A DNA stretch of 64,000 nt from Acidimicrobiia bacterium (GCA_009377435.1 WHUC01000001.1:200-64199); one strand, 5' to 3'; shown: positions 20,591 through 60,327, counted from the first letter of the stretch. The notes: generated from the letters alone by a model not told the origin. Made by a program: numbers and translations.

Positions 20591-20848
20591 TATGTCCTCG
20601 CCTTGGAATGGGCCGAGGTGGGCATCCGTGTTAACGCGGTCGGCCCCACCATCGTGCCCAGCGACATGACCGAGGATGTCCGATCGGATGAGGTCTACAT
20701 GCGCCAGAAGATGGCCAGCATCCCGTTGGGTCGCATGGCTACCACAGGTGACGTCGCCGAAACGGTGGCATTCTTGGCGTCACCGGCGGCGGGAATGATC
20801 ACCGGGCAGACCATCTTCGTCGATGGTGGGGCCACTATCCATTAAGGA
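20591..20848 (+). pseudogene. short-chain dehydrogenase/reductase (SDR) C-terminal remnant
   Basis: GIRVNAVGPTIV...IPLGRMATTGDVAETVAFLASPAAGMITGQTIFVDGGATIH is a canonical SDR tail. No Rossmann TGxxxGxG or YxxxK region is present upstream. Confidence 0.5.
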
Positions 20849-20937
20849 GACTGTCTCCTTCATTTTCCAGAGGATCGTTCGCCAATCGAGGGTCAGATCC
20901 CTGCCGCGGGGAGGGATGATCATCAGCCGCCTACCTT

Positions 20938-21489
20938 CTAGGTAGCGATGTCGGCTCGGAGCTGTTGGAGGGCCCGGCCGATCCGACTCTTCACCGTCCC
21001 CAAAGGAACATCGATCACCGCGGCTATCTCGGGTTGGGTCCAATTGAGGTAATAACGAAGGACAATCACCTCGCGGTGCTCATCAGACAGCTTCGCCACC
21101 GCAGCCGCCATCACCGGATCTGGAGGATCCGGATCCTCAACCGGGGTCTCTGGGAGATACTCGGTGGTGTGCTCACGCCGTCGCTTTCGCCACGAGCTAA
21201 TCGCCTGATTATGGGCCACCCGATACACCCACGCCGCCGGCTTGTCATAACCCTTCACCTTGACCCAGGACATGTACGCCTTGGTCATCGCCTCATCCAC
21301 CGCGTCTGCAGCATGGTCAACATCACCAGTGACCAGGGTTATGGCGCGCACCAACGACGGTCTCTCATCCGTGTAGAAATGCTCGAATTGTCTCTCATCA
21401 CGTCGGCTCAGTACCGTCCCCCGACTGGAACCACTGCCCCTCAGCCCGGTAGACGAAGCAGATACCGACTCGTCTCTTGTCATTCTCAT
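20938..21489 (-). CDS. ECF-subfamily RNA polymerase sigma factor
   Basis: Sigma-2 (FEHFYTDERPSLVRAITLVTGDVDHAADAVDEAMTKAY) and sigma-4 (REVIVLRYYLNWTQPEIAAVIDVPLGTVKSRIGRA) regions. Paralog of the gene at 33859. Confidence 0.85.
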   Translation of the reverse strand: MRMTRDESVSASSTGLRGSGSSRGTVLSRRDERQFEHFYTDERPSLVRAITLVTGDVDHAADAVDEAMTKAYMSWVKVKGYDKPAAWVYRVAHNQAISSWRKRRREHTTEYLPETPVEDPDPPDPVMAAAVAKLSDEHREVIVLRYYLNWTQPEIAAVIDVPLGTVKSRIGRALQQLRADIAT

Positions 21490-21987
21490 CCAACCACGTG
21501 ACCCCACCTTCACCCTGTCCCGCAACGACTCGGGGGTGTTCCCGATAATTGGCAAGGCTCCGGAGGGTGGGTAAACATATCGGCACCGACGTCGGCGAGC
21601 ACCGCAGCCGCCAGTAGCGGCAGGATTCACGCCGTGGTCGGTGCCCTTGGTTGCGGTCGCTCGATGACGAGCCTGTAGCGGCCCAGTCGAACGGTGCGGG
21701 TCCGTCTGGGTACGGAGCCGGCGAGACGCTCTGCGGCAGCTCGGTGTATCCGCTCCCGATGGGTGGTTCGGATGATTTCGTAAGCGATATCAGGGTTCAT
21801 CGTGATTCCTTCCGTCTTGTTTGTTCACTGTCTTGGTTCGTGTCCTGGGGGCGACCCTTATTGGGGTCCGTGGGGGCCATGTCACAACTTGGGGAAGCTC
21901 CCATGAAGGCACGGTGAAAGATGGTGAAATCGTCTTCATGTTTGATCAGCCCTCTAGCCGAGTGACACTGAGGCGAACCTCGTGCTG

Positions 21988-22545
21988 TCAGTGCCTCCGA
22001 CCCGCCTCCCACTCATCGAGTTTGTGGAGACCGGCGATGCACCACACCTCCGCATCATCGGACTCGTCACTGCCACGGAAACGGCGGATCAGCTCTCCTA
22101 GCGCTCCGATCTCGCATCCGCGGGTGCCCAGAAACAGAGACACGACAAAAGATATGGAGACGAGGATCGCGAAGACGACGATCAAGCCATAAAGAAATGA
22201 GGTCAACGGCGACGCCCACAGCCGGCCTTCCAGGGCAAAGGTGACCGCCATGGTCACAACCAGGACTCCACCAAAGATCGTCAAGATCCGCATGCCCCAT
22301 CGCCGTCCGAGAGCACTTGTCGGGAGCTGATAGAGCCCGTAGTAGACAGTCAGACCCGTCCAGATCCACACCCAGGGATTGGTGGTAGTGGTGGGCTCCG
22401 AGAACCAGGTCAGACCGGCTTCGATCCATTCGTAGGCGGTCCAAGCCATGAACACTCCCATTACGAGACGGACCAGTCTGCCCACCGGTCCGCTGCGTTG
22501 CAGTCCCCCGGTTGCGCCAGGTTCCTCATTGACTCGAGTGATCAT
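21988..22545 (-). CDS. hypothetical integral membrane protein
   Basis: 185 aa with four or five hydrophobic segments. Divergent from the two-component system. Confidence 0.5.
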   Translation of the reverse strand: MITRVNEEPGATGGLQRSGPVGRLVRLVMGVFMAWTAYEWIEAGLTWFSEPTTTTNPWVWIWTGLTVYYGLYQLPTSALGRRWGMRILTIFGGVLVVTMAVTFALEGRLWASPLTSFLYGLIVVFAILVSISFVVSLFLGTRGCEIGALGELIRRFRGSDESDDAEVWCIAGLHKLDEWEAGRRH

Positions 22546-24598: not shown

Positions 24599-25587
24599 CC
24601 GTATAGCAAGGTCGTGATCTGTTTCTCGAGTCGGTCGAGTTCAACATCAAGCTTCTCCAAGAGTCCCGACTGGCTGTGCGCCAATGCGAGGAGCAGATGT
24701 TCAGTGCCCATGTAATTGTGGTTGAGCTTCTGAGCCTCCGACCGGGCTCGCTCCAGTATCTGTTTCGTCTCGGGAGCCATCGCCACCGGTGCAGGCTCGG
24801 TGCCTTCGGGCCTACCGCTCCGCAATTCCCGGCGCACCGCTTCGACGTCGACGCCGAGGACCTTCAATGTCTTCGCTCCCAGCGAGTCTGGAACCCCGAC
24901 AATGCCAAGTAGGAGGTGCTCGGGGAGGACGTCGGAATAACGGAGCTCTTGCGCCGCCTTGGTGGCACCTTCCAGGGCTTCATGGACCCGGTCGGTGGGT
25001 TCTGGAGTTTCAAGCATGCGCCGGTGGCGTCGTTTGCGGCGACGACCCACAGGTTGCGGTTGCCGTTGTTCATCCAGGGTGGCGGTGGCGAGGGTGAGGC
25101 AGTGACCGCAGATCCGCATGCCGCCACGCACCACCAGGGAACCGCTCTTTCGCTCAGGTTTCCGACAGAAACAACAGGTGAGATTCGACTCACTCGAGAC
25201 TTCAAGGACAAGTTCGCCGTCACGGGCACCTCAACCCTGGGCAAGGGCATGCAGCCCCAGCGACACACAGCCGCTGCAGACAAACACCCCAGGACCGGCT
25301 ACCAGCCTTTCGACATCGGCCTTTCGTCGTCCACAGAAGCCGCAGGCTGTATCCGAGACAATTTGGTGTACCCGCTGGTGGCTGATCTCCAATCGACGGG
25401 CAATATCCCGTAACGACACCCCGGAGGTGTGAAGACGGCGAATCGCCTCGTGATAGGCCGACCTGGCCCGATCGGTCGCGGCCTCCTCATCCATCAGTCG
25501 GGTTCGGGCTGTAGTTGCCTCCGACCAGATTTCGTTGATCGCTTCCGCCATGTCTAGTAGACTAGACACCTCCCGAGACTTGATCAA
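24595..25587 (-). pseudogene. HTH + tandem ClpX-type zinc-finger + Clp N-domain protein, split by an in-frame TGA
   Basis: The upstream part carries an HTH and ZnF1 (CGFCGRRKADVERLVAGPGVFVCSGCV), then TGA at 25233..25231. In the same frame follow ZnF2 (LTCCFCRKPERKSGSWVRGGMRICGHCL) and two Clp_N repeats (LPEHLLLGIV, MGTEHLLLAL). No canonical start can rescue ZnF2. Confidence 0.55.
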
Positions 25588-25900
25588 CGAGAACTAGCCG
25601 GGTCCTCTATCGGCTCAATCCGAAATACCGGGCAGTGGTCGACCAGCGTGGCGAAGGCGTCAGGGTCGGCGGTCACCCCGTAGAGGCGGGTGAAGAAGGG
25701 CACTCCGTGGGGGACCTCGCTGGGGAAGGCCCTCAGGATGGGCTCACGGTCTCCTCGTTCCAGTTCGGTCAGCCGCACCTTGTGACGGTCATTGCCGTAG
25801 GCGAGATAGCCCGAACCGGCAGCCCGGACGTTTCGAACCCAGTCGGAGGCGGCATGGCCGGCGACAATGTACTCCTGGCCGTCACCGGTCTCGCATCGAC
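25584..25900 (-). pseudogene. deazaflavin-dependent nitroreductase (DUF385) C-terminal fragment
   Basis: DGQEYIVAGHAASDWVRNVRAAGSG...RLTELERGDREPILRAF...CPVFRIEP aligns with the Ddn-family C-terminus. The N-terminal TTTGRKSG-like segment lies in a different frame. Confidence 0.4.
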
Positions 25901-25920
25901 CACCACCGTGCCCGAGTCCA

Positions 25921-26697
25921 TCAATCGACGAACGTCGACCGGTTCCAACGACTCCAGAAGGGGCGGCCGGTCACCGTACACCACCGGACCGAGTCGGTTG
26001 CGTTCCCGGAGGTGGTGGTAGTAACCGGGATAGGACCCGAGGCTCCCGAGCAGAAGTGCAACGAAGGCTTCCTCGTCGGAGACCTGGAGATTAGGGGTTG
26101 GTGGCCGTCTCCGCACCCAGAGTTGTGACCCCGGTCACCGGTGACCCCGGCGGTGCAGAACGACCCGGCACCGTGGGTTGGGTACACATTCAGATCATCG
26201 GGTAGTGGATGTAGCACTTCACGGAGCGACCGGAAGAGACGTCGTGCCAGGTCCTCGGTTTGATCGGGTGCGATCAGGTCGGTGCGGGCCACCGCCCCCA
26301 CGAGGAGACTCCCACCCGAGAACAGGGCCAACGGGGTGGAGTCATCGCTGAGCAGATAGGCCAGATGTTCGGGGGTGTGTCCAGGTGTGGCCAGGGCCGA
26401 GAGGGTGAGCCCGCCCAGATCGACATCCTCACCTGAGTCGACGAGGCGATGGTCGAAGACGAGATCGGCACCTCTTGGGGCGTACAAGATCGATCCCACC
26501 GCCTGGAGCTCGCGTCCACCCGAGATGAAATCGGCATGGAGATGGGTCTCCACCGTGGCAGAGATGGTCCACCCCAGGCTCTCCGCCGTGGCCAGATAGG
26601 CCGAGCGGTCGCGACGAGGGTCCACTGCAAGGGGTCTCCCGAGCCTCCCGCGGCCCCCACCCGGGGCTCTCTCAAGGGCGGACCGGTGAGCGGTCAC
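25921..26697 (-). CDS. MBL-fold metallo-hydrolase (glyoxalase II-like)
   Basis: ETHLHADFISGG (HxHxDH), ATPGHTPEH and YPTHGAGSFC motifs. The C-terminal ~40 codons look like read-through into the DUF385 remnant. Confidence 0.6.
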   Translation of the reverse strand: MTAHRSALERAPGGGRGRLGRPLAVDPRRDRSAYLATAESLGWTISATVETHLHADFISGGRELQAVGSILYAPRGADLVFDHRLVDSGEDVDLGGLTLSALATPGHTPEHLAYLLSDDSTPLALFSGGSLLVGAVARTDLIAPDQTEDLARRLFRSLREVLHPLPDDLNVYPTHGAGSFCTAGVTGDRGHNSGCGDGHQPLISRSPTRKPSLHFCSGASGPIPVTTTTSGNATDSVRWCTVTGRPFWSRWNRSTFVD

Positions 26698-36635: not shown

Positions 36636-37028
36636 GTGATGTATCTGATGATGATCTACGCCGACCAATCGGACTGGGACGCCCTGGGCACCGGTGCCAC
36701 GGGAGAACCGGTCTGGTCCGAGGACGATGTCCAGGCGATGTACGGGTTCATGGAGGCCTTGAACAACGACCTCGCCACTTCCGGAGAGCTGATCGCCGCC
36801 GCCGGGTTGGCCGACCCGACCCACACCAAGATCGTTCAGATGAAGGACGGAGTCCCCATGGTGACGGACGGGCCCTACATGGAAGCCAAGGAGGTTGTGG
36901 GTGGCTACTGGGTGCTCGAATGTGAGAGCCTCCAGCGCGTGATCGAGATCGCCCAACGTGTGGTGAGTGCGCCGCAACCCGAGGGAGTCGAGCCCGGCGC
37001 GGTGGAAATTCGGCCGATCGCGGGCTGA
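36636..37028 (+). CDS. YciI-like / DGPF domain protein (paralog of 34529)
   Basis: MMYLMMIYAD...VTDGPYMEAKEVVGGYWVLE. Confidence 0.75.
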   Translation: MMYLMMIYADQSDWDALGTGATGEPVWSEDDVQAMYGFMEALNNDLATSGELIAAAGLADPTHTKIVQMKDGVPMVTDGPYMEAKEVVGGYWVLECESLQRVIEIAQRVVSAPQPEGVEPGAVEIRPIAG

Positions 37029-37151
37029 ATCCAAGATTTCTTGGATACGGATGTCGAGTGAGTTCCCTGGAACGACCTTGCGGGTCTGACGTTTGGCCGG
37101 CCCCTGATGGGGAATAGAACCTGTTGAACCCCGCCGAGGCAAGGAGAAGTC

Positions 37152-37355
37152 ATGGATAGTCCCTCAGGAACCAAGTGGGAAGGTCGATGGGACCAGCTCA
37201 AGGGCAAGGCCAGACAGGCCTGGGGAAACCTAACCGACGACGACCTCGATGTCGCCCAAGGCAACTACGAGGAGCTGGTCGGGCGCATCAAGGAGAAGAC
37301 GGGCGAGTCCGAAGAGGCGATCCGAGGGCGTCTCGATCGTGACGACGAAATCTGA
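37152..37355 (+). CDS. CsbD-family stress protein
   Basis: GKWDQLKGKARQAWGNLTDDDLDVAQGNYEELVGRIKEKTG is the canonical CsbD motif. RBS aaggagaag. Confidence 0.8.
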   Translation: MDSPSGTKWEGRWDQLKGKARQAWGNLTDDDLDVAQGNYEELVGRIKEKTGESEEAIRGRLDRDDEI

Positions 37356-37382
37356 CCATCCAAGCTGGTTCGCCGGTTGAGA

Positions 37383-37437
37383 GCGCCAACCTGAGTGCAC
37401 GGCTGTGCCTGGAGGTACAAAATCAGCTGATGGTCGG
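37383..37437 (+). repeat. copy 2 of the ~55-nt repeat
   Basis: GCGCCAACCTGAGTGCACGGCTGTGCCTGGAGGTACAAAATCAGCTGATGGTCGGG. Lies between convergent genes. Confidence 0.6.
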
Positions 37438-38630
37438 GCTGTTCACCGATCCGACTAGCTCCCACAGGTCGTCGGGCTCCTCTGCGGGAGGGGAATCGAG
37501 CTCCCAGGCGCCCGACCGCTTCGCAAACCGCCACCACCTCCCGTCGCTGCCGAGGCGGATCTGGAGGTCGCCGACCGTCAACATGTTGAGACGGACTTTC
37601 ACCTGGGAGGGGGGAGCGCCGGCGGTGACCAGCGCTCCACGGGCAACCGCCATCGCCCGTGGGTCGGGGCGCCACGGCGGTTCCTCCAACACCCGCACCC
37701 CGGCCGCGCCGCCGTGACGCCAGGCGATCGCCCGCCGGGCCAGTCGACGCCGGTTCGCTCCCGAGGCCTCCACCAGACGATCCCAACCGGGGGTTCCCAG
37801 AGTCGAAGCCGCTCGGCGGGCCATGTCGGTGTCATGGTCGTCGGCCAGCCCCGAGGTGCCCTCGCCGCGGTAGGCGCTCCAGGCCCGTTCGACCGCGTCG
37901 ACTGCCAGCGCCCTGAGACCCGCGGCGGTGAACGGGGCGTCGGCCGGGGGGTCAACCGGCAATGCGGCGGGGGTTCCGGGCCGGGATCGGGTCGGCGGAG
38001 GCACGGGCAGCTCGCCGAGGGGCCGAGCCCACGCCTCGACGGCTCGGATCGCCTCGTCCTCGGAGGGTGACGGGGCGGCAGATGTGTCCCGCGGGGCCGG
38101 GTCGGAGCGTCTGCGCCGCAGCGCCGCCAGCACCTGGTCGCGATAGAGGCCCCGCAGCGTGAGGAGGGCGAACGGGTCGGCGTCGAGCTCGCGGGCCACC
38201 AGATAGCAGACGGCGGCGGAGTGCTTGCACGGGTCGGCCCAGTCGGGGCAGGAGCACCGGGGCTGGAGATCGCCGACGTCGGGAAGCAGCTCCACGCCGA
38301 CGGCACGGGCGTCCTCGACGACGGCCGGCTCGAGCTCGCCGTCGAGGAGGGCAGCGGCATGTCCCGCCTTGGAGGCGATGGCGTCGAGGACACGGTCCCA
38401 CTCGGACTGGTCGAATCGGCGCACCCGGACCCGCACCTGGTACGGCGTCCGTCGGCGACCCTGCACCGAGGCCCGGATCTCTCCGGGTGACAGCTCCAGA
38501 TGGGTGGCCCGGTCCTGGCGGGCGTAGGTGCGCCCCCGGGGGAGACGATTGGGGTCGAGGCGGGCCCGCTGCTCGAGCGCCTCCAGCCAGGCTCTTGCCC
38601 ACCACGACGATCCAAAGTCGCGCCGGGCCA

Positions 38631-38631
<1 letters not shown>
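37423..38631 (-). CDS. SWIM zinc-finger protein (SNF2-helicase-associated)
   Basis: MARRDFGSSWWARAWLEALE and SWIM motif CSCPDW...CKHSAAVCYLV. Pro/Ala-rich C-terminus. Its ATG overlaps the SNF2 stop (TGATG). Confidence 0.75.
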
Positions 38632-41393
<2,762 letters not shown>

Positions 41394-50455: not shown

Positions 50456-51067
50456 GTGAGAAAGCTGGTAGTGAGCACGTTCCTGACGCTGGATGGCGTC
50501 ATGCAGGCGCCCGGGGATCCCGACGAGGACCGCAGCGGCGGCTTCGAGCATGGCGGCTGGCAGATGCCGCTGTTCGACGAGGGGTCGGGCGAGGCCGTTT
50601 CGGCGGGCATGGCCAGGTCGGATGCATTCCTTATGGGGCGAACGACCTACGACATCATGGCCGCCTTCTGGCCCAACCAGCCCGACGACGATCCCATTGC
50701 CGCCGTGATGAACGGCTACACCAAGTACGTGGTGTCGGATTCCCTGGACGAGGTGGAATGGGAGAACTCGACACTGATCGAGGGAGACGTTGCCAACGGG
50801 ATCAGGAATGTCAAGGAGCAGCCTGGCAAGGACATAGTGGTAGTGGGCAGTGGCAATCTCGCCCAGACCCTGATGGAACACGACCTCGTCGACGAGTATG
50901 GGCTCCTGGTGTATCCGCTGGTCCTGGGCACCGGAAAGCGGCTCTTCCGCGACGGTGGGCCCCACACCCCCTTGAAGCTGGTCGATTCCTCGACGACCGA
51001 GAACGGGGCGCTGGTCCTCAGGTATGTGCCGGTGTCCCGGACTGGCGGAGGCGATACCGAGGAGTAA
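50456..51067 (+). CDS. dihydrofolate-reductase-family protein (RibD C-terminal-like)
   Basis: VSTFLTLDGVMQAPG...GRTTYDIMAAFWP...IVVVGSGNL. RBS ggagg, GTG start. Confidence 0.8.
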   Translation: MRKLVVSTFLTLDGVMQAPGDPDEDRSGGFEHGGWQMPLFDEGSGEAVSAGMARSDAFLMGRTTYDIMAAFWPNQPDDDPIAAVMNGYTKYVVSDSLDEVEWENSTLIEGDVANGIRNVKEQPGKDIVVVGSGNLAQTLMEHDLVDEYGLLVYPLVLGTGKRLFRDGGPHTPLKLVDSSTTENGALVLRYVPVSRTGGGDTEE

Positions 51068-51129
51068 GCGGCAGGGTCGTGCACAGCGATCCCGTTTGAG
51101 ATGTCGAGAATGGGTGTGCGCGCCGTGAC

Positions 51130-51348
51130 CCTCCGGAAATCGAGGGCTGGGACGAGATCGTGGCGAGCCTGGAGGAGCCCACGATGCTGGGACGCACGGC
51201 GACGCTGGAAGATGTGGGCAAGGTGGCAGCGTTCATCGCTTCCGATGGTGCCGCCACCATGACCGCTGCCACGGTCAACATCAGCTGCGGAGCCCTGGTC
51301 GACAGACCAACACGTTCTGTCCCAACCAGCCAGTACCTTGCCGAATGA
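51130..51348 (+). pseudogene. second SDR/enoyl-reductase C-terminal remnant
   Basis: GRTATLEDVGKVAAFIASDGAATMTAATVNISCGALVD is an SDR tail with no N-terminal domain. Confidence 0.4.
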
Positions 51349-51734
51349 CGGATGGAGAACGGGCCGAAAGGCACACCATGACCACAGCCCGCGACTCTCT
51401 CTATACTCGATTGCGAGAAGTGCTCGGAGACCCCGGAGCGCAAACCCTGATGGACTTGCTACCACCCTCGAGTGACATTGCCACCAGGTCCGACATCGAC
51501 CGTCTCGATAGCCGGATGGGTGCGTTCGAGCGTCGACTCGATCGCGTGGAAGTTCGGTTCGATGGGCTAGAACAGCGCATCGGTCGGATAGAACACCATA
51601 TGGAGCGCTTCGACGACCGACTCCACGGTTTCCATGTCGAGTTGCGTAAGCAGACCCGCACCTTCGTGTTGGCCTCGACCACGTCTTCGGCCGTACTGGC
51701 CACCGTCGCCTTCGCCGCGGCCTCGCTGATTTGA
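51345..51734 (+). CDS. hypothetical protein with a C-terminal TM anchor
   Basis: 129 aa. Coiled-coil-like middle region, hydrophobic tail (FVLASTTSSAVLATVAFAAASLI). Confidence 0.4.
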   Translation: MTDGERAERHTMTTARDSLYTRLREVLGDPGAQTLMDLLPPSSDIATRSDIDRLDSRMGAFERRLDRVEVRFDGLEQRIGRIEHHMERFDDRLHGFHVELRKQTRTFVLASTTSSAVLATVAFAAASLI

Positions 51735-51932
51735 TCTGAACGCATCATGGAGGCAACACCCGGCATGACGGGCTCGACCCGGCCCGGGTACCTACCCAGC
51801 GGTCTTTCTCGAGACCGGTGTACTGCTCGATCGGATCGCGTTGGGTTGACCACCGCCGGGTTCGGGGTCAATACGACCGTGTGCGGCGCTCGTCAGGGAA
51901 TCTCCCTGCGGGGCATCGCTCGCGGTCGGGGC

Positions 51933-52451
51933 TCAGTAGGAGCCCTTCTCGCCGTCGAGAAGCTCCCGGATGGCATCCACGTGACCGGCGTGCCGGGCGG
52001 TCTCCTCCACCATGTGGATCAACATCCATCGCAGGGACGCGGCAGCAGAACCGAAGTCGGGGTGCCGGCCCACGTCATCCAGCGAATGGGCGGCAACGAT
52101 CTCGTTCGACACCGCGCACTGCCGCTCGTACTCCTCGAGAAGTTGTGCCAGTGGGATGCCCTCGACCATCATGTCGGCATCCTCGGGTTCCTCCTCGAAA
52201 TGAGGCCCCTCGGCCGGCCCGCCCAAGAAGAGGACCTCGAACCAGCTGTGCTCGACCCAACGCAGGTGGGAGACGACACCAGCCATCGTCATGAGGGGCG
52301 AAGTCGCAAGGACAGATCGGTGCGCATCCCCCTCGGACAAACCTTCGCACTTCCAGTGAATGATCGCCCGCTGCATGTCAAGCCAGCCGACAAGCTGGGT
52401 TCGCTCGTCGGCCACGTAGGGAGGGCGATTGCGGGGAGGGGTCATGAGCAC
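51933..52451 (-). CDS. DinB/DUF664-family protein
   Basis: DERTQLVGWLDMQRAIIHWKCEGLSEGDAHR is the DUF664/DinB_2 N-terminus. Has the His-rich metal-binding spacing. Confidence 0.7.
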   Translation of the reverse strand: MLMTPPRNRPPYVADERTQLVGWLDMQRAIIHWKCEGLSEGDAHRSVLATSPLMTMAGVVSHLRWVEHSWFEVLFLGGPAEGPHFEEEPEDADMMVEGIPLAQLLEEYERQCAVSNEIVAAHSLDDVGRHPDFGSAAASLRWMLIHMVEETARHAGHVDAIRELLDGEKGSY

Positions 52452-52622
52452 CGACGGTACACAGCCGACGTCACATCACGGAAACCTCGAACGCCTCGAT
52501 TAGCCAGCCCAAGCCCACGCCCCCAAACACATCAGGAGAAGGGGGGCCTTCGTCTATAAATGCGATACAGACGGTAAGCTTATATATGCATTAGCATCCA
52601 TGTCCTCCCTTATGAATATGAC

Positions 52623-53792
52623 GTGATGATGGAACCAACCGAGTCGACCGACAGGGCCGGCAGATACGTCCGCCACCCCAGTGGCTACGACTACTTTGTC
52701 CCTGAGCCGCTGCCACCACCCGACCTCGATCTGACTGCGGGATTTCTGACGCGGCTCTCCTTAGCCGATAGAGCTCTGGCGCGTCTCGACGGAGCAGCGT
52801 CGGTGTTACCCAATCCAGACCTATTCGTGTTCATGTACGTCCGTCGTGAAGCGGTGCTGTCGAGCCAGATCGAAGGGACGCAGGCCTCGCTCGACGACCT
52901 TTTGGAAGCCGAGGCCGAGCTTGCGAGTGGTGAACGACGGGTGGAGATCGACGAAGTGGTGAACTATGTGGGGGCACTGCGCTACGGGATCCTCCGACTC
53001 GACGCGCTCCCGGTGTCATTGCGTCTGGTTCGTGAGCTACATGAACGCCTGATGCAGGGGGTCAGGGGCGGTGAACCCTCCCGGACCCCAGGTCAATTTC
53101 GACGTTCCCAGGATTGGATCGGGGGGACCTCACCATCGACCGCCCGCTTCGTCCCACCGTTGGCAGAGGACATCGCCACCATGCTGTCCAGTTGGGAGCG
53201 GTTCATCCACGACACCGCTCAAATGCCCGACCTGGTGCGTATAGCCCTGATCCACGCACAGTTCGAGACCATCCATCCATTCCTGGATGGAAACGGAAGG
53301 ATCGGACGACTGCTGATATCGATTCTGCTCCACCAGTGGGAGATCATCCAGCGGCCACTGCTCTATCTGTCGATCTTCTTCAAGGAGCACCGAGATCTCT
53401 ACTACGAGAGACTCCAGGCTGTGCGTGACAACGGCGAGTGGGAGGAATGGATCGACTTCTTCATCGAAGGGGTGGCCACCGTCGCCACCGAGGCCTACGA
53501 AACCGCTACTGAGATCCTTGCCCTACGCGAGAGAGATCGTGAGCGCTTGGTCGACCTAGGACGCCGATCGGGCACGGCCCACAAACTGCTCGACTACCTC
53601 TTCGAGCGTCCTGTCATCTCGGTGGCCTTGGCAACCGATGTCCTTGGGGTATCCCAACCCACGGCTAACGCTCTTGTCAACGCCTTCGAAGAGGCCGGGC
53701 TACTGCGCGAAACCACCGGCTACCGGCGAAACCGGAAGTTCGAGTACGTCGAGTACCTGGACCTGTTCGGCGAGCGCGGGAGTCGCCAGTGA
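52623..53792 (+). CDS. Fic-family protein
   Basis: Canonical Fic motif HPFLDGNGRIGRLL with a C-terminal winged HTH. An AT-rich stretch lies immediately upstream. Confidence 0.9.
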   Translation: MMMEPTESTDRAGRYVRHPSGYDYFVPEPLPPPDLDLTAGFLTRLSLADRALARLDGAASVLPNPDLFVFMYVRREAVLSSQIEGTQASLDDLLEAEAELASGERRVEIDEVVNYVGALRYGILRLDALPVSLRLVRELHERLMQGVRGGEPSRTPGQFRRSQDWIGGTSPSTARFVPPLAEDIATMLSSWERFIHDTAQMPDLVRIALIHAQFETIHPFLDGNGRIGRLLISILLHQWEIIQRPLLYLSIFFKEHRDLYYERLQAVRDNGEWEEWIDFFIEGVATVATEAYETATEILALRERDRERLVDLGRRSGTAHKLLDYLFERPVISVALATDVLGVSQPTANALVNAFEEAGLLRETTGYRRNRKFEYVEYLDLFGERGSRQ

Positions 53793-53974
53793 CGCCAAGA
53801 GCCGTTCTCCCTGGTCACAAATGGATATCACCATTCCACCTCGAGGGAGCGCAGGCTCCGATCCAGAGGCGCCGTTACGGGAGGTACATGCTGACCAAGT
53901 CGGGGCGTCAGCGGTCTTGCACGCACCTCGAATAGGTCTTGTTCCTGTGGTGACTACCAGCCGACCTGCTCGGG

Positions 53975-54502
53975 TTAGATATCCCCTTTCGACTCCCATT
54001 GCTCAGTCCGATCCCAGGTGAGCGTTCCACTGCCTAGAAGCTGGGGAAAGAGGGCGAGGACCACACCGACACCCGTTGCAGATGGTGCGAGGATGGCTTG
54101 ATATTCGGTTGCGTGGGCGGCCTCACCGATCTGTCTAGGAACTTCGCGGTCAACTCCTACGATCTGTCTAGCATCGACTCCGATGTGCCGCAGAGTTGCC
54201 TCCGATGTGAGGTCGAGAACCCTGTCGATGGAAACGTGATACCGGTACAGCACTCTGGGGAGGAGGCCGTCGACCCCGATCACTTCCCGTTGGCCCAGAC
54301 GTTCCAACTCCGCGACAACGCATGGACGCGTCGTGCATAGGTAGAGCACTGGGAAGCTCCCCGGTGGGTTGAACCGTCCGCCGTGCATCCTTGCACCCTC
54401 ACTACTTAGAGGCTCATCCCTCTTTGCTGGCATATGACGGAAAGCATCGCCGTGATAACGAATGAAACCGGCCGTGGCAACCGCTTCGGCGTTGACCTCC
54501 AC
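53975..54502 (-). CDS. RES-domain toxin (MbcT/ParT-like NAD-targeting)
   Basis: GGRFNPPGSFPVLYLCTTRPCVVAE and RES-domain spacing. One nt separates it from the upstream antitoxin. Confidence 0.85.
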   Translation of the reverse strand: MEVNAEAVATAGFIRYHGDAFRHMPAKRDEPLSSEGARMHGGRFNPPGSFPVLYLCTTRPCVVAELERLGQREVIGVDGLLPRVLYRYHVSIDRVLDLTSEATLRHIGVDARQIVGVDREVPRQIGEAAHATEYQAILAPSATGVGVVLALFPQLLGSGTLTWDRTEQWESKGDI

Positions 54503-54503
54503 G

Positions 54504-54827
54504 CTACGAGGTGACGCCTTCGGACATCGCCAGGATTGCCCCGATCACCCGTCTGTACTCTCCGCGTTTGATCAAGTCGAGGGGCTTCTCATACCCGAGG
54601 CTCGGGTTAGGGCTCCTGATCCACAGGCGCGCTGGTTCCTCTCGCAAGACGGTCCGGAGAACATCCAGGACGGCCTTGAGTTCGAGGAGGCGGTCCTCAG
54701 CTAGCCGACGCGGTGACGCACCATCCAGCCATCTCGAAACGCTCCGAGGCGTGGTTTCGGTGACGCTTGCCACATCAGGTTGGTCGACAACATCATCGGC
54801 TAGGAGATCGTCAACCAGGCTCGCCAT
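54504..54827 (-). CDS. Xre-like/MbcA/ParS antitoxin (DUF2384)
   Basis: RLWIRSPNPSLGYEKPLDLIKRGEYRRVIGAILAMSEG is the DUF2384 toxin-binding tail. Start ATG chosen at MASLVDD. Confidence 0.75.
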   Translation of the reverse strand: MASLVDDLLADDVVDQPDVASVTETTPRSVSRWLDGASPRRLAEDRLLELKAVLDVLRTVLREEPARLWIRSPNPSLGYEKPLDLIKRGEYRRVIGAILAMSEGVTS

Positions 54828-55387
54828 GTTCGACACGGGTCTCCTCTCGTTTGATGTCACCGATGTAATGCGACAAGCTAATGTATATCCTAACGTCAAG
54901 ACAACGCATGTCGAACGTCTCGGAGAGAAAATTGTCGGAACCATCTCGCTAGGGGAGGAGTTCGCTGTGCCTGATCACCACTCCACGTCAAGCGCCCGAA
55001 GGCTGCTATCCAGACCGACACTCCAGCGCAGGTCGGCACCTTCTCGTAGGTGGAATTCGGGCGCGACGGCGTGCCATTCCTCGACGGCGATACGCACCTG
55101 AAGCCGGGCGAGACTGTCCGTCACCACTCCACGCGCCGGACCCGACCAAACAACGCCGGAGGTGGGGCCAAATCGGGCCACCACAGTGGGGCCAATCGAG
55201 TTGACATTCCATTCCGCCGTACTTCCTCCCAATCCGTTTCCTCCAGTATGTTCAAAGCTGCCAGATGGAGGGTCGGTCCAGCCATCAACAAGGCGCGCGA
55301 CCAACTGTCGATGGGCGTCGTTGTGAAGGGGTGTTGGGACGTGCGAACAGAATTTCGGTATCTCCTCCGCACTATGGTCACTCTTGC

Positions 55388-55621
55388 ATGGATACGGCCA
55401 CGTTGATCGTCAATCTCATGGTGGGTCTTGGCACTCTCGCCCTTGCCCTTATGGCCTATCTTCAGATCCGCGTGTCGCGAGACGCAGCGCGTTCGGCAAA
55501 TGCAGCCTCGCAAGCCGCACACGAATCCGTGGCTGAAGCACGGCGGGCGAGGATGGCCGCCTCGACCACTGTGGCGTTGCGCCCGCTGTGGCTCACCACC
55601 ACCAGACAATCGCCCTCTTGA
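55388..55621 (+). CDS. possible small membrane protein
   Basis: 77 aa: MDTATLIVNLMVGLGTLALALMAYLQIRV, then an Ala/Arg-rich tail. Moderate third-position GC. Only weak support. Confidence 0.2.
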   Translation: MDTATLIVNLMVGLGTLALALMAYLQIRVSRDAARSANAASQAAHESVAEARRARMAASTTVALRPLWLTTTRQSPS

Positions 55622-56287
55622 GTGGCTTATGGAGAGGAACTTGTTGATGTAGCCCTCGGTGCGCTCCAACCAGAGCAGTTCCCTGGTTCCACCGGTGCCG
55701 AGGATGTCGTGCCACATGAGGCGAGGATCGAGGAGTGGATTGAACCCGATGTAGCTCCTACCGGGGGAAGGCCTCCTGGCAGGGAAGCACCGAGTGACCC
55801 GCCGCGAATAGGTGGAGAAAGCCAACGCCCGAATCTCCTGAACATCGGGAGAGGACTTTCGGAATTGACAAGTCCGAATAGCGGAGGCTCGGCCACGTTC
55901 TTCCCTGTACCCGAAGATGCCTTCCTCCTCATCGACCACATCCTGGTGGACATTAGAGTTGGCGTGGATGTGCCGATGATGGTTTCGTGACAGTCCCGCT
56001 TCATGGCGGGTTCCGAGATCCGTTCTTGCGGTCCACCCCTCCGACCGAAGGCGAGGATGTTCAGCGCGTTCCATTCCCTTTCTACGCCTACCGTCGTGAA
56101 CCCAGGGTCGCCACTCGTGATCCGCGTGTTCCCCAATGGCTTCGTCGACCTTGACCTGTCACGTTCAGCCGGTCTGGGCTACCAGGGTTGGCGAATCCCG
56201 ATCGAGAGTGCGCCACCCAGAAATCTGCACGGACGGCTACGACCATTCGAGGGATCCGGATTCCGGTCATCCCCTGACGACGATCGG

Positions 56288-57220
56288 TCACCAATAGAGG
56301 ACGATCAGGTAGGCGAGGTACCCCACCACCAACACACCACCGGCGAACCTGCCGATGCGGCCGCTTCGCCCCCCGAGGACGAGAACGAGGAGGGGGAGGG
56401 CGGCGGCCAGCCAGGCCCAGGGGACGACGCCCGCGGTGTCGATGGGCCGCACCAGCGCCGCCCCTCCGAGCGTCACGGTTGCGTTGTAGCCCGCCGAGCC
56501 GACCAGTCCGGCGACGGCGAGCTCCTCGACATCCCGGCGGATGGCCGAGAAGGCCAGGGCGAAGAGCTCGGCGGTTGTCGCTAGCGATACAAAGCTGAGT
56601 CCGACCACGGACTCCGTCACACCCAAGGCCACCACCACGTCCTCGGCTCCCAGTACCGCCACCCAGCCACCAAGGGCCATGATTGCCACCCCGGCCAGCA
56701 CCAGCAACAGACCCTTCAGCCCATCGTCGGGATCGTCCCCGACGTCGTCCCCGAACTTGGCCAGATCCCCGATCGGAGGAACCCGGCGTTCCACCCGCCA
56801 CACCACCGCCACCGCCACCGCGTAGAGCAGAACCAGGATGACTCCCTCGACTCGACTCACCCCGTTCGGGACGGACAGCGCAGCCGCCACCCCGAGGGCG
56901 CCCGCTCCCACCAGATAGGGGCGGACTCGCCCCCCAACCGGTAGTGGTCTCGTCAGGGCCATCAGTCCGAGGACGACGGTGACCATGGTCACGTTGGCCC
57001 CAATGGCGTCACCGGCGGCGATCCCACCCTGACCGCGCCAGGCGGCGATCGCCGCCGTGATCAACTCCTCGGGTTCGGCTCCGGCCAACAGGAGACCGAC
57101 CGCCAGCCGGGTGGTTCCGAGATGCCGCCCCGCCGAGCTCGCATGCTCGACGAACAACTCCGCCCCAAACCAGAGCAGGGCGGCAGCAGCCACCAACAAC
57201 ACGAACCCGAGCATCACCAC
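56288..57220 (-). CDS. Ca2+/Na+ antiporter (CaCA/YrbG family)
   Basis: Two alpha-repeats (GTTRLAVGLLLAGAEPEELITAAIAA and VGLSFVSLATTAELFALAF). Ten TM helices. Confidence 0.85.
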   Translation of the reverse strand: MVMLGFVLLVAAAALLWFGAELFVEHASSAGRHLGTTRLAVGLLLAGAEPEELITAAIAAWRGQGGIAAGDAIGANVTMVTVVLGLMALTRPLPVGGRVRPYLVGAGALGVAAALSVPNGVSRVEGVILVLLYAVAVAVVWRVERRVPPIGDLAKFGDDVGDDPDDGLKGLLLVLAGVAIMALGGWVAVLGAEDVVVALGVTESVVGLSFVSLATTAELFALAFSAIRRDVEELAVAGLVGSAGYNATVTLGGAALVRPIDTAGVVPWAWLAAALPLLVLVLGGRSGRIGRFAGGVLVVGYLAYLIVLYW

Positions 57221-57375
57221 ATGCTACGAGCCACCCGGGGACCCCTTCGCCGCGGCGGGCATGAGCCTCGGGCACCCTCATCCTACTTTTTTGATGTGTC
57301 AACATTGATAGGGACACGAGTGACAGAAACTGTCCACCTCGGCCGCCCGCACCCGATCGGCACTATTGGTGGGAG

Positions 57376-57803
57376 TCAGGAGTCGAGCGGCTCCCATGTG
57401 ATCGATGGGAACCGGTCGAAGTCCCGGTCATTGGACAAGACGGTGTCAACGCCGTGCTCGCGACAGAGCGCAACCATGACGGCGTCGCTGACCATGCCGC
57501 CTCGGACACGAGCGGTCTCGATCGTCTCCGACAGGAGTTCCCAATGTCGCGGCCCCGGCGAGAGCACCCGGATAGAGGGCTGGCAACCAACCCATCGACC
57601 AGGTCGAGGGCCTGGCGCACTGGGGTCGGTGGGTCGAAGATATGTTGGGTGACGATGCGGACGAAACCCTAGGGCACCACCACCGGCAGCGCCCACGCCT
57701 CGGCGCCCTCGGCCAAGCCGACCAGGCGAGCCCGGGCCCGGTCGTGAAGGGCCAGCTCACTGCGATTGGCGTGGATCAGGACATTGGTGTCGACCGCGAT
57801 CAT
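57376..57803 (-). pseudogene. PIN-domain VapC toxin with an amber stop and a frameshift
   Basis: MIAVDTNVLIHANRSELALHDRARARLVGLAEGAEAWALPVVVP-TAG-GFVRIVTQHIFDPPTPVRQALDLVDGLVASPL, then a frame change to RVLSPGPRHWELL...DAVMVALCREHGVDTVLSNDRDFDRF. Confidence 0.6.
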
Positions 57804-58049
57804 CGGCTCGACGGATCGAGTTCGGCGCGATCGAGGTACTCGGCCAATTGGGCGTTGCTGTCGATATCGACCAGGGGGGACGCCGTCCCCGGGTTATCGG
57901 GAGGTCGAGCTTGTATCCGGAATCACCGGTGCAGTCAGTGCCAGGTGGAGTGCTTCCTCCACCAGACTCGTCAGGGTCATGCCTCGCGCTGCAGCCCCAG
58001 CCTTGGCGGCTCGGAGCAGGTCGTCGTCGATGTTGATGGTCGTCTTCAT
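57804..58049 (-). pseudogene. VapB-type RHH antitoxin with a frameshift in a C7 run
   Basis: MKTTINIDDDLLRAAKAGAAARGMTLTSLVEEALHLALTAP, then the conserved tail LVDIDSNAQLAEYLDRAELDPSSR in another frame. That tail would end with ATGA onto the vapC start. The shift maps to ccccccc at ~57930. Confidence 0.5.
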
Positions 58050-58150
58050 ATGGCTCAACCATATCAGAGCAGCCAGATCTACCATACCGCGACCGGGCGG
58101 GGGGAAGGCGGGAGTGCAACCACGAGAAGCACGGCGGCACCGCGAAGGCC

Positions 58151-58864
58151 TCAACCTCCCAGGTAGAGGCGACCCATCTCCTTGTCGGCTAGCAAGTCGC
58201 TCCCCGAACCTTCGAATCGGTTCGCCCCGGCGGCGAGTACGTAGGCCCGGTCTGCGATCTGGAGTGCCCGCTCGACATTCTGCTCGACTACGAGGAGGGC
58301 CACACCCAGCTCCTTGAGTTCCCGCACCTTCTCGAAGAGATCATCGGCCAGGGCCGGGGACAACCCGGCGCTGGGCTCATCGAGAAGGAGCAACACGGGC
58401 TCCAACATGACGGCGCGGGCCAGGGCCAGCATCTGGCGCTGGCCACCGGAGAGATCCTGCGCCGGTGCCCGGGCAAACCGCTCCAGGTCGGGGAAGAGCC
58501 TGTACATCTCCTCAATTCGCTCATCCCGGCGATCACGTCGGAGGTGCCCGGCCAGCTCCAGGTTCTCCCGGACAGACATCGTCTGGAACACATTGTCGAG
58601 CTGGGGGAGATAGGCGATGCCCATGCGCACCAGTTCTTCGGGTGCTACGCCAACAATGGATTGGCCCCCAAAACGGAGCGAACCACTCCATGGTCGGAGC
58701 AGACCCACCACCGCCTTGGCCAGGGTCGACTTACCGGCGCCGTTGGGCCCCACCACCGCCACCAGTTCTTGACGGGCGATGCGCAGGGATACCCCGTGGA
58801 GGATTTCGGTCTCGCCGTAGCCGACGACCAGGCCCTCCACATCGAGGAGGACCCGGTCGTTCAT
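58151..58864 (-). CDS. livF: branched-chain amino-acid ABC transporter ATP-binding protein
   Basis: [34 protein letters not shown]. LivF-type, 237 aa. Confidence 0.9.
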   Translation of the reverse strand: MNDRVLLDVEGLVVGYGETEILHGVSLRIARQELVAVVGPNGAGKSTLAKAVVGLLRPWSGSLRFGGQSIVGVAPEELVRMGIAYLPQLDNVFQTMSVRENLELAGHLRRDRRDERIEEMYRLFPDLERFARAPAQDLSGGQRQMLALARAVMLEPVLLLLDEPSAGLSPALADDLFEKVRELKELGVALLVVEQNVERALQIADRAYVLAAGANRFEGSGSDLLADKEMGRLYLGG

Positions 58865-58872
58865 CCCCGGCG

Positions 58873-60327
58873 TTATGCGCCGCCCAGCTCGGAGAGCAGG
58901 TCTACCAGACTCTCCTCTGTTATCTCGCCGGTTTGCACCACCTCCGTACCCGCGACCTCGAACACTCCGAACCCCGAGACCGAGTTACCGGTGTCGTCGA
59001 TATTCACCGATCCCGACGCCCCCTCGTAATCCGGATCGCCTCCGGTGTCGAGGATCTCCTTACAGGCGGCGAATGTGGTGCAGGCCTCACCATCGCGGGA
59101 GACAGCCGGAATCTGGGCGGCGACGGCGGTCTGATCGATGGATCCGGCGGCGTGGACGGCAAGGGCGATGATATTCATGGCGTCGTATCCCAGATCGGCC
59201 AGGATCACCGGCTCATCATCGTCGGGGAAGATCTCCTGATATGCGGCCAGGTAGTCCTCCCGACCCGGTCCAATCGAAGCCGGCGAGATGGCGATCAGTT
59301 CCAGTTGTTCGATGACTGGCTGGATGGCTGCGATCGAGTCCTCGTTGAGGACCACGTCATTGCCGATCCAGAGCATTTCAGCGATCTCGGGAAACTCGCT
59401 GGCGTTCTGCCAGAATTGGCTGGCCGTCGTCGGTGAGACCTCGAAGAAGACGCACTCCGGGGCGGGGTCCCCAACCAACTGCAGAATCTCCGACCGGTAG
59501 GAGCCTTGGCCTGCAGCGATGTCGACCACCTTGAGAATCTCGCCCTCCAGAGTCTCGAAAGCGGGCTGGATGGTTTCCTTCACCGATTGAGCGCCTTCCA
59601 GTGACTCGACCACGATGGCACACGAGGTGTTTCCCGCGTCCACGGCGGCTTGGGCCATGGCCGGTCCGACAACGGAATCGGAGGCCGTGGACCGGAAGGT
59701 GGTCTCTCCCTTGATCGTGGTGTCCAGCGCCGCAGTCCCTGCAATGATCATATCGGGCACCCCTGAGGCCTGAATCCGTTCCAGCACACCCATGATGGTC
59801 ACCGACGTCGGCCCGACCATGGCGTGGACGCCGTCACTCTCGATGAGCTTCTGGACGGCGGCGATGGCACCCTGGGCGGTCCCCTCGGTGTCGGCGGTGG
59901 TGAGTTGGACATCGGCCCCGGCGGCGCCCTCGGCCTCGTTGATCCGGGTCAGGGCCACCTCCACACCCTTATTGAGGTTGGGTCCCAGGAAGCCTTTCTC
60001 GCCGGTAAACGGCGCTGCCAGCCCGACGAGGATCGGGCCCTCGATGCCTTCGGGGGATGGAGTGGTCTCGGTGGGCTCCGAGGTTGACATGGTGGTGGGA
60101 GTGGTTGCCTCAGTAGTCCCGGGGATGGTTGTCGGGGCGGTCCCTGGGGTGGTGGTCGGAGTTGGCTCGGGTGAGGTCTCCGCGGTGTCCCCGGCTGATC
60201 CCCCCCCGCAGGCGGAGACCACCAGGATCATGGCGATCAGTGTGACGAGCATCTGTGGACGTGAGCGGTCGAATTGCATGGCGGCCTCCTGGACCTTCTT
60301 CTGGCGAATCCTAATGTTTTCGGTCAT
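58873..60327 (-). CDS. branched-chain amino-acid ABC transporter substrate-binding lipoprotein
   Basis: Lipobox VVSACGG, Thr/Pro-rich linker, type I PBP domain (LivK-like). ATG at 60327 overlaps the livG stop. An alternative start lies at 60279. Confidence 0.8.
   Translation of the reverse strand: MTENIRIRQKKVQEAAMQFDRSRPQMLVTLIAMILVVSACGGGSAGDTAETSPEPTPTTTPGTAPTTIPGTTEATTPTTMSTSEPTETTPSPEGIEGPILVGLAAPFTGEKGFLGPNLNKGVEVALTRINEAEGAAGADVQLTTADTEGTAQGAIAAVQKLIESDGVHAMVGPTSVTIMGVLERIQASGVPDMIIAGTAALDTTIKGETTFRSTASDSVVGPAMAQAAVDAGNTSCAIVVESLEGAQSVKETIQPAFETLEGEILKVVDIAAGQGSYRSEILQLVGDPAPECVFFEVSPTTASQFWQNASEFPEIAEMLWIGNDVVLNEDSIAAIQPVIEQLELIAISPASIGPGREDYLAAYQEIFPDDDEPVILADLGYDAMNIIALAVHAAGSIDQTAVAAQIPAVSRDGEACTTFAACKEILDTGGDPDYEGASGSVNIDDTGNSVSGFGVFEVAGTEVVQTGEITEESLVDLLSELGGA

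Follow-up and report, generated by a model that had tools for sequence, protein, structure and literature searches.

Probable remnants of a SIS_2 gene and a cytochrome P450 gene in a lower-GC interval of an Acidimicrobiia-like genome

The closest characterised and structurally solved relative of the larger sequence described here is NagS (SCO4393) of Streptomyces coelicolor (PDB 9EOL; PMC12680351), a GlcNAc-6-phosphate dehydratase of the SIS_2 family. According to that paper, orthologues of NagS occur in Streptomycetaceae only, where they are linked to dmdR1, and more distant homologues from other families, at about 30% identity, are reported to be without NagS activity (PMC12680351).

Intact relatives of the SIS_2 sequence at our locus are distant homologues of NagS, one of which (P0004) matches it at E 1.6e-29. 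They stand at the end of clusters of Amidohydro_1, SBP, two permeases, ROK, GntR-UTRA and SIS_2, which is an amino-sugar uptake and catabolism operon setting; with its ROK kinase, GntR/UTRA protein, sugar ABC transporter and NagA-like amidohydrolase, this setting resembles that of NagS. One of the homologues is from a source named Ilumatobacteraceae bacterium. In contrast to NagS, the copy described here is not a gene: it is spread over three frames, its C-terminal ~115 residues are gone and it has no operon partners.

The locus as a whole compares with bacterial pseudogenes and gene remnants in variable regions rich in toxin-antitoxin genes: like them it is frameshifted and truncated, has lost codon bias and drifted to lower GC, and gives rise to spurious ORF calls, and an inactivated toxin gene (VapC) is its neighbour; no feature sets it apart from that class. 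From what we observe (homologies, frame changes, truncations, missing partners and composition), the interval is very probably non-functional debris of two unrelated minus-strand genes together with ~730 nt of DNA that matches nothing. It is ordinary pseudogene debris within a lower-GC block rich in toxin-antitoxin genes, and both families involved are well known.

Composition and open frames of the interval

In a window of 64,000 nucleotides, the whole stretch of DNA that was analysed, positions 54945-56287 (1343 nt) hold no intact gene. With a GC content of 0.607, this interval lies below the remaining window (0.649, both to its left and to its right) and the antiporter gene (0.69), which confirms the sequence-only reading that about 1.3 kb of lower-GC DNA lies here without a convincing gene. 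The extent given there was too narrow, as the lower-GC block runs over 52400-56287 (GC 0.598) and takes in the Fic, RES and Xre genes. Its placement of the interval between the RES-Xre pair and the antiporter was borne out by Pfam, from which the identities of the four flanking genes are taken. These genes, and the ORFs that have been called or pointed out in the interval, are as follows.

52623-53792, plus strand: Fic gene
53975-54502, minus strand: RES gene
54504-54944, minus strand: Xre gene; the gene caller's start is at 54827
54887-54914, minus strand: promoter-like site upstream of the Xre-RES pair, TCGACA-16-TAGGAT (9/12 matches)
54975-55181, minus strand: 68-aa ORF retaining the P450 tail, called protein P0121 (Logan)
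55121-56074, minus strand: 317-aa ORF, spurious; called protein P0001 (NCBI and Logan sources)
55388-55621, plus strand: 77-codon 'membrane-like' ORF, antisense to SIS_2 piece 3 (55471-55620, minus strand)
55622-55990, plus strand: 122-aa ORF, named in the earlier reading
56288-57220, minus strand: Na_Ca_ex antiporter gene

The promoter-like site belongs to the neighbours and not to the remnants. The RES toxin, too, is in the public protein collection, with 137 aa from the NCBI source and 175 aa in the Logan call.

Stop-free runs of 74-345 codons occur across the six frames of the interval, and the ORFs that had been noticed at 55121-56074 and 55622-55990 do exist. Run length equals the dinucleotide-shuffle expectation in five of the six frames; the remaining run, of 345 codons on the minus strand (55124-56158, the 317 aa being counted from its ATG), was equalled by no more than 0.4% of the shuffled sequences. 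Real genes in other parts of the window are, however, often overlain by shadow ORFs of 320-330 aa. Long but meaningless ORFs in six frames would be accounted for by formerly coding high-GC DNA being poor in stop codons.

The weak third-position bias noted earlier holds as well, with GC3 of 0.57-0.65 for the long ORFs of the interval and of 0.78-0.83 for the antiporter, ABC and DinB genes. Two qualifications apply: the genes to the left share the weak bias (RES 0.60, Xre 0.69, Fic 0.72), and in the correct local frame GC3 is partly kept, at 0.83 in the SIS core piece and 0.72 in the P450 tail. Frame plots showed short coding-like patches on the minus strand of the interval, and we therefore treated it as broken coding DNA. 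That no motif could be assigned in the sequence-only reading was a limit of reading by eye; with search tools, ~45% of the interval is assignable, to a SIS_2 remnant and a P450 remnant.

Two remnants on the minus strand

Judged by similarity, a SIS_2 / UPF0309 ('sugar isomerase domain-containing protein') gene has left its 5' ~55% in the stretch from about 55903 down to 55471. The remnants and the stretches around them are listed below.

About 55904-56287, no strand: stretch between the SIS remnant and the antiporter 3' end, no family match
55878-55945, minus strand: probable SIS_2 N-terminus, poorly conserved; weak similarity to homologue residues ~1-18
55761-55877, minus strand: SIS_2 piece 1, homologue residues ~19-59, in its own frame (tblastn 55877-55761 and 55832-55761)
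55631-55756, minus strand: SIS_2 piece 2, homologue residues 62-103 (tblastn), in the frame of the 317-aa ORF
55471-55620, minus strand: SIS_2 piece 3, homologue residues ~108-150, in a third frame
55119-55470, no strand: stretch between the remnants, no homologue found with HMMs, phmmer or family profiles
54975-55118, minus strand: P450 3'-terminal remnant, the last 47 codons (55118 down to 54978) and the stop (54975-54977)

The SIS_2 remnant corresponds to the first ~145-150 codons of a ~262-codon gene, and the C-terminal ~115 residues are absent. A family HMM that we made from 112 SIS homologues and ran on six frames matched at positions 37-60 (E 2e-11), 62-103 (E 4.7e-26) and 108-145 (E 3e-9), in three frames; positions 146-262 had no match in any of the six. 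There are at least two frame changes, one at about 55760 and one at about 55620-55636 (frameshifts ~55636 and ~55619), and in-frame stops follow after about 55470, where the homology of piece 3 ends. Upstream of piece 1, 55878-55945 was reached by frameshift-aware alignment only; the N-terminus of the family is itself poorly conserved, and no start codon of the remnant is identifiable within this segment.

Each piece keeps recognisable parts of the family. The GxGHS phosphosugar-binding motif region is present in piece 1 as 'AAGHSV', piece 2 is 86-88% identical to intact homologues with a GC3 of 0.83, and piece 3 on its own reaches 29 bits against Pfam SIS_2 (E 1.3e-6; cut-off 27); the strand-helix 'GDCLVVVSHSGRNA' is also retained in the remnant. 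NCBIfam NF002805 (247 positions) matched at positions 64-101 in the 345-residue frame and at 106-135 in a second (E 1.8e-7); as is normal for a fragment, its 30.6 bits fall short of the 135 bits required at full length.

By tblastn and frameshift-aware alignment, 80 of 122 aligned residues are identical to homologues, and stitching the three frames together gives a translation that matches PF13580 with 67.6 bits (cut-off 27) over profile positions 36-129 of 138. This translation retrieved 205 database homologues, the best intact ones being PF13580 proteins of 261-262 aa (E 1e-38), 60-69% identical in the best BLASTP alignment, which takes in 30-36% of the stitched query. At the DNA level the remnant is 75% identical to intact genes and 69% identical to a Martelella plasmid gene annotated 'sugar isomerase domain-containing protein'. 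An apparent trace of the SIS C-terminus, 'VDGWTDPPSGS' (55289-55257; 8/11 identical to residues 181-191), was rejected because it lies ~110 nt out of register and is not significant, the HMM having reported no match there.

No single uninterrupted frame of ~245-265 codons spans the SIS_2 domain, which is divided over three frames with its C-terminal half gone. The three frames, the missing positions 146-262 and the stops together indicate a pseudogene derived from the SIS_2 family and not a functional member. The ancestral role of the gene, as far as it can be read from the sequence, would be no more specific than 'phosphosugar-binding', and the remnant cannot have activity in any case. In the 64-kb window, tblastn searches (E<=1) with the ROK, GntR, SBP, permease and amidohydrolase proteins of two intact clusters (L002 and L005) gave no match beyond chance and generic ABC ATPase matches, and neither a GntR regulator remnant nor a DasR-type operator was found upstream of the SIS_2 remnant.

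The second remnant emerged from an exhaustive phmmer search of the minus frame 54978-55409 against 1.8 billion representative proteins, in which only the last ~46-52 residues match, at the extreme C-termini of cytochromes P450. The tail is 65% identical to P0122 (E 8.5e-8) and 54% identical to P0123 (409 aa; E 8.4e-7), both of which are PF00067 cytochromes P450. Apart from the ORF's own record (P0121), three weaker matches were left, to two short proteins that share the C-terminal motif and to a repeat protein (E 7e-4), the last apparently spurious. A pattern scan over contigs from metagenomes added four relatives of the tail, three of them full-length. An HMM of the P450 subfamily matched 55118 down to 54978 at positions 373-419 (E 3.9e-19) and nothing else, and by blastn 54975-55113/55116 shares 70-75% DNA identity with the 3' ends of six P450 genes, stop included. 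Exhaustive search and pattern scan were needed, as a word-indexed search with the stitched remnant found only itself, and the fragment alone falls below every Pfam threshold. P0122 is a 157-aa call from a 604-nt ENA contig (L027) whose N-terminus looks off-frame, and it may itself be a frameshifted or mis-called P450 fragment.

The subfamily is actinobacterial (P0123 and metagenome loci L029-L031), and the tail matches proteins of ~410 aa with 54-71% amino-acid identity. Compared with an intact P450, ~88% of the gene is gone, including the haem-ligand Cys loop (FxxGxHxCxG), downstream of whose expected place the remnant sits (HMM positions 373-419 only). The fragment descends from a P450 gene without being a P450 itself. 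The homology starts abruptly at ~55117, as would be expected of a breakpoint left by deletion or rearrangement and not of slow erosion.

Two further P450 candidates were set aside. One was an upstream extension in frame A ('LMAGPTLHL...FGRVRRV') that appeared, at ~27% identity, only under permissive frameshift penalties; neither the subfamily HMM nor Pfam supports it, and the stitched 'FGRVRRV' is without the Cys. The other was an inverted N-terminal piece at ~56160-56270 on the plus strand ('LGYQGWRIPIESAPP..H'), which we treat as chance since blastp gives E 0.1 against four sequences. Frameshift-aware scores there are 2-3 sd above shuffles, with alignment paths that differ between queries. 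The plus-strand sequence 'LGYQGWRIPIESAPPRNLHGRLRPFEGSGF' resembles the P450 N-terminal 'LGNDxPxIPIETDPPxH..YRR' at 13 of 30 positions, which is not significant (blastp E 0.1). It lies about 1 kb from the minus-strand C-terminal tail of the same subfamily; if the resemblance were real, an inversion would have split the P450 gene.

The two remaining stretches, 55119-55470 and 55904-56287, had no match in Pfam, NCBIfam, PADLOC or PHROGs, none to the SIS and P450 HMMs run on six frames, and none in a distant blastn of the plasmid collection; for 55119-55470, exhaustive phmmer of the open minus frame was also without a match. Since ~730 of the 1343 nt thus have no detectable homologue, 'debris' is for that portion a presumption.

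Alternative explanations for the interval

No database homologue spans the region in one frame, in keeping with the sequence-only reading; homologues match in several frames, which is a pseudogene signature. The alternative that comes nearest to surviving, although we hold it to be very unlikely, is a real novel protein gene, represented by the 317-aa ORF (possibly arisen de novo from debris), the 77-aa ORF or the 68-aa ORF. The 345-codon frame exceeds 99.6% of shuffles, perhaps a sign that selection keeps it open; gene callers called both the 317-aa and the 68-aa ORF; and the 77-aa ORF starts with a hydrophobic helix. However, codon-position GC shows no coding signature in any of the three, the window has many shadow ORFs of similar length, and formerly coding high-GC DNA is unlike shuffled DNA.

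Arg makes up 14.8% and His 6% of the 317-aa product, as in off-frame translations of GC-rich DNA. Only its residues 107-148 (42 residues) lie in the true SIS frame, and it has no other protein similarity beyond them; it has no precomputed Pfam domain, and the search with the stitched translation showed only its own copy. It is an artefact, a read-through of the three frames of the SIS remnant and of unmatched DNA, and the novel low-GC gene that had been among the earlier candidates finds no support. The 77-codon ORF, which had seemed faintly genuine, is antisense to the best-conserved SIS strand-helix, 'EGDCLVVVSHSGRNATVVEAAILAR', the frame enclosing it lacks a coding signature (GC123 0.62/0.56/0.61), and its matches are at noise level (NCBIfam MtfM, E 0.11; one PHROG, E 0.05). 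The 68-aa called protein is likewise an artefact of pseudogene debris. We give slightly less credence still to the related idea that the 345-codon frame is a young de novo gene made from SIS/P450 debris, or that an RNA from the debris, as leader or antisense, modulates the downstream Xre-RES pair.

Could the SIS gene be intact, and only appear broken through sequencing or assembly indel errors? The contig appears to be metagenome-assembled and two of the lesions are small indels. Repairing them would not restore the gene, however, because HMM positions 146-262 are missing in all frames and stops follow piece 3. Moreover, the independent Logan assembly is identical base for base (100% over 50479-57235), though it may rest on the same reads, and the long neighbouring genes, of 310-484 aa, are without frame breaks. 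We regard indel error as highly improbable.

The ~730 nt without protein homology, and the position of the interval upstream of Xre-RES on the same strand, might suggest a structured long non-coding RNA or a leader acting in cis, on Xre-RES or the antiporter for instance. Against this, Rfam gave no match at E<=1 over 52000-59000, and folding z in 150-nt sliding windows averages 0.0 on the plus strand and 0.3 on the minus strand (minimum -2.1), with stronger values in the flanking coding DNA. Convincing terminators were not found, and the promoter-like site of Xre, at 54914-54887, lies downstream of the remnants. The long non-coding RNA proposed earlier thus has hardly any claim on the interval.

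The mobile-element remnant (insertion sequence or prophage scar) that had also been suggested fits the lower GC of the 52400-56287 block and its mobile-type cargo (Fic and RES-Xre within it, VapBC close by), but is scarcely credible given that a search for terminal inverted repeats around 54950 and 56280 and for flanking direct repeats returned only chance-sized matches of 15-22 nt, that no transposase, integrase or phage family matches in any frame, that the only tRNA gene of the window is about 50 kb off, and that the recognisable content is two metabolic genes.

Pseudogene debris, as the reading we prefer, agrees in part with the 'decayed foreign gene' that headed the earlier candidates. 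The decay is real, but it concerns two unrelated remnants and not one gene; and nothing marks the remnants as foreign, as their nearest relatives are high-GC actinobacterial or Acidimicrobiia-type genes.

Neighbourhood and probable history of the locus

The VapC (PIN) toxin gene adjoining the antiporter is also a pseudogene (57376-57803, minus strand; start 57803, stop 57376), having an in-frame TAG at 57671-57669 ('VVVP*GFVRIV') and requiring a frameshift at about 57575-57590. PIN positions 1-117 of 120 are covered by the stitched translation (E 5e-14), but only 64-117 by the ORF on its own (E 7e-6). With VapC, SIS_2 and P450, three inactivated genes lie within 3 kb, beside apparently intact Fic and RES-Xre genes, which marks this part of the Acidimicrobiia-like genome as variable and undergoing decay. 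The VapB-like antitoxin gene at 57894-58154 (minus strand) looks intact. The 52400-56287 block, with its Fic gene and its RES-Xre (MbcT/MbcA-type) toxin-antitoxin pair, may be an islet that was acquired or is evolving fast; neither an integrase nor a tRNA gene nor repeats at its flanks were found for it.

The sequence of events, and the mutational origin of the drop in GC, are our inference. Toxin-antitoxin cassettes (Fic, RES-Xre, VapBC) would have accumulated in a variable region, where deletions or rearrangements would have truncated the SIS and P450 genes, removing most of the P450 gene and most of an amino-sugar operon. With selection lost, indels and probably AT-biased point mutation would have worn down the frame and the GC3 bias. 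AT-biased mutation pressure is general in bacteria, and we propose that AT-biased drift of such leftovers gives the lower GC and the faded third-position signal.

The interval is best annotated as two pseudogene fragments, of the SIS_2 family and of cytochrome P450, and the called proteins of 317 aa and 68 aa in the public collection need correction; the value of this lies in annotation and implies no new biology. The interval also illustrates how decayed high-GC coding DNA looks when read by eye, with lower GC, no codon signal and ORFs everywhere.

The best relatives of the antiporter, 66-70% identical, are in Acidimicrobiia MAGs, and together with the SIS homologue from a named Ilumatobacteraceae source they make an actinobacterium of the class Acidimicrobiia the probable host of this DNA. 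The 21 loci of antiporter relatives from GTDB species representatives, at most 70% identical, have no neighbouring gene in common with this locus. Elsewhere in the window, a crude GC3 filter pointed to three other stretches without a strongly biased frame, which could be further lower-GC3 or decayed genes: 20667-21990, holding an ECF-type sigma-70 ORF (20938-21630, minus strand); 25411-26689, holding a 258-aa ORF (25921-26697, minus strand) with no Pfam match; and 37026-38070, overlapping a 481-aa ORF (37423-38868, minus strand) with a match to the SWIM zinc-finger family. The most stable folds in a scan of 53-58 kb (z -3.0 to -3.3) are at 57000-57249 on the plus strand; this is where the antiporter gene has its 5' end and upstream edge, and the folds coincide with a 19-nt inverted repeat (57013-57031 / 57039-57057, 84% complementary).
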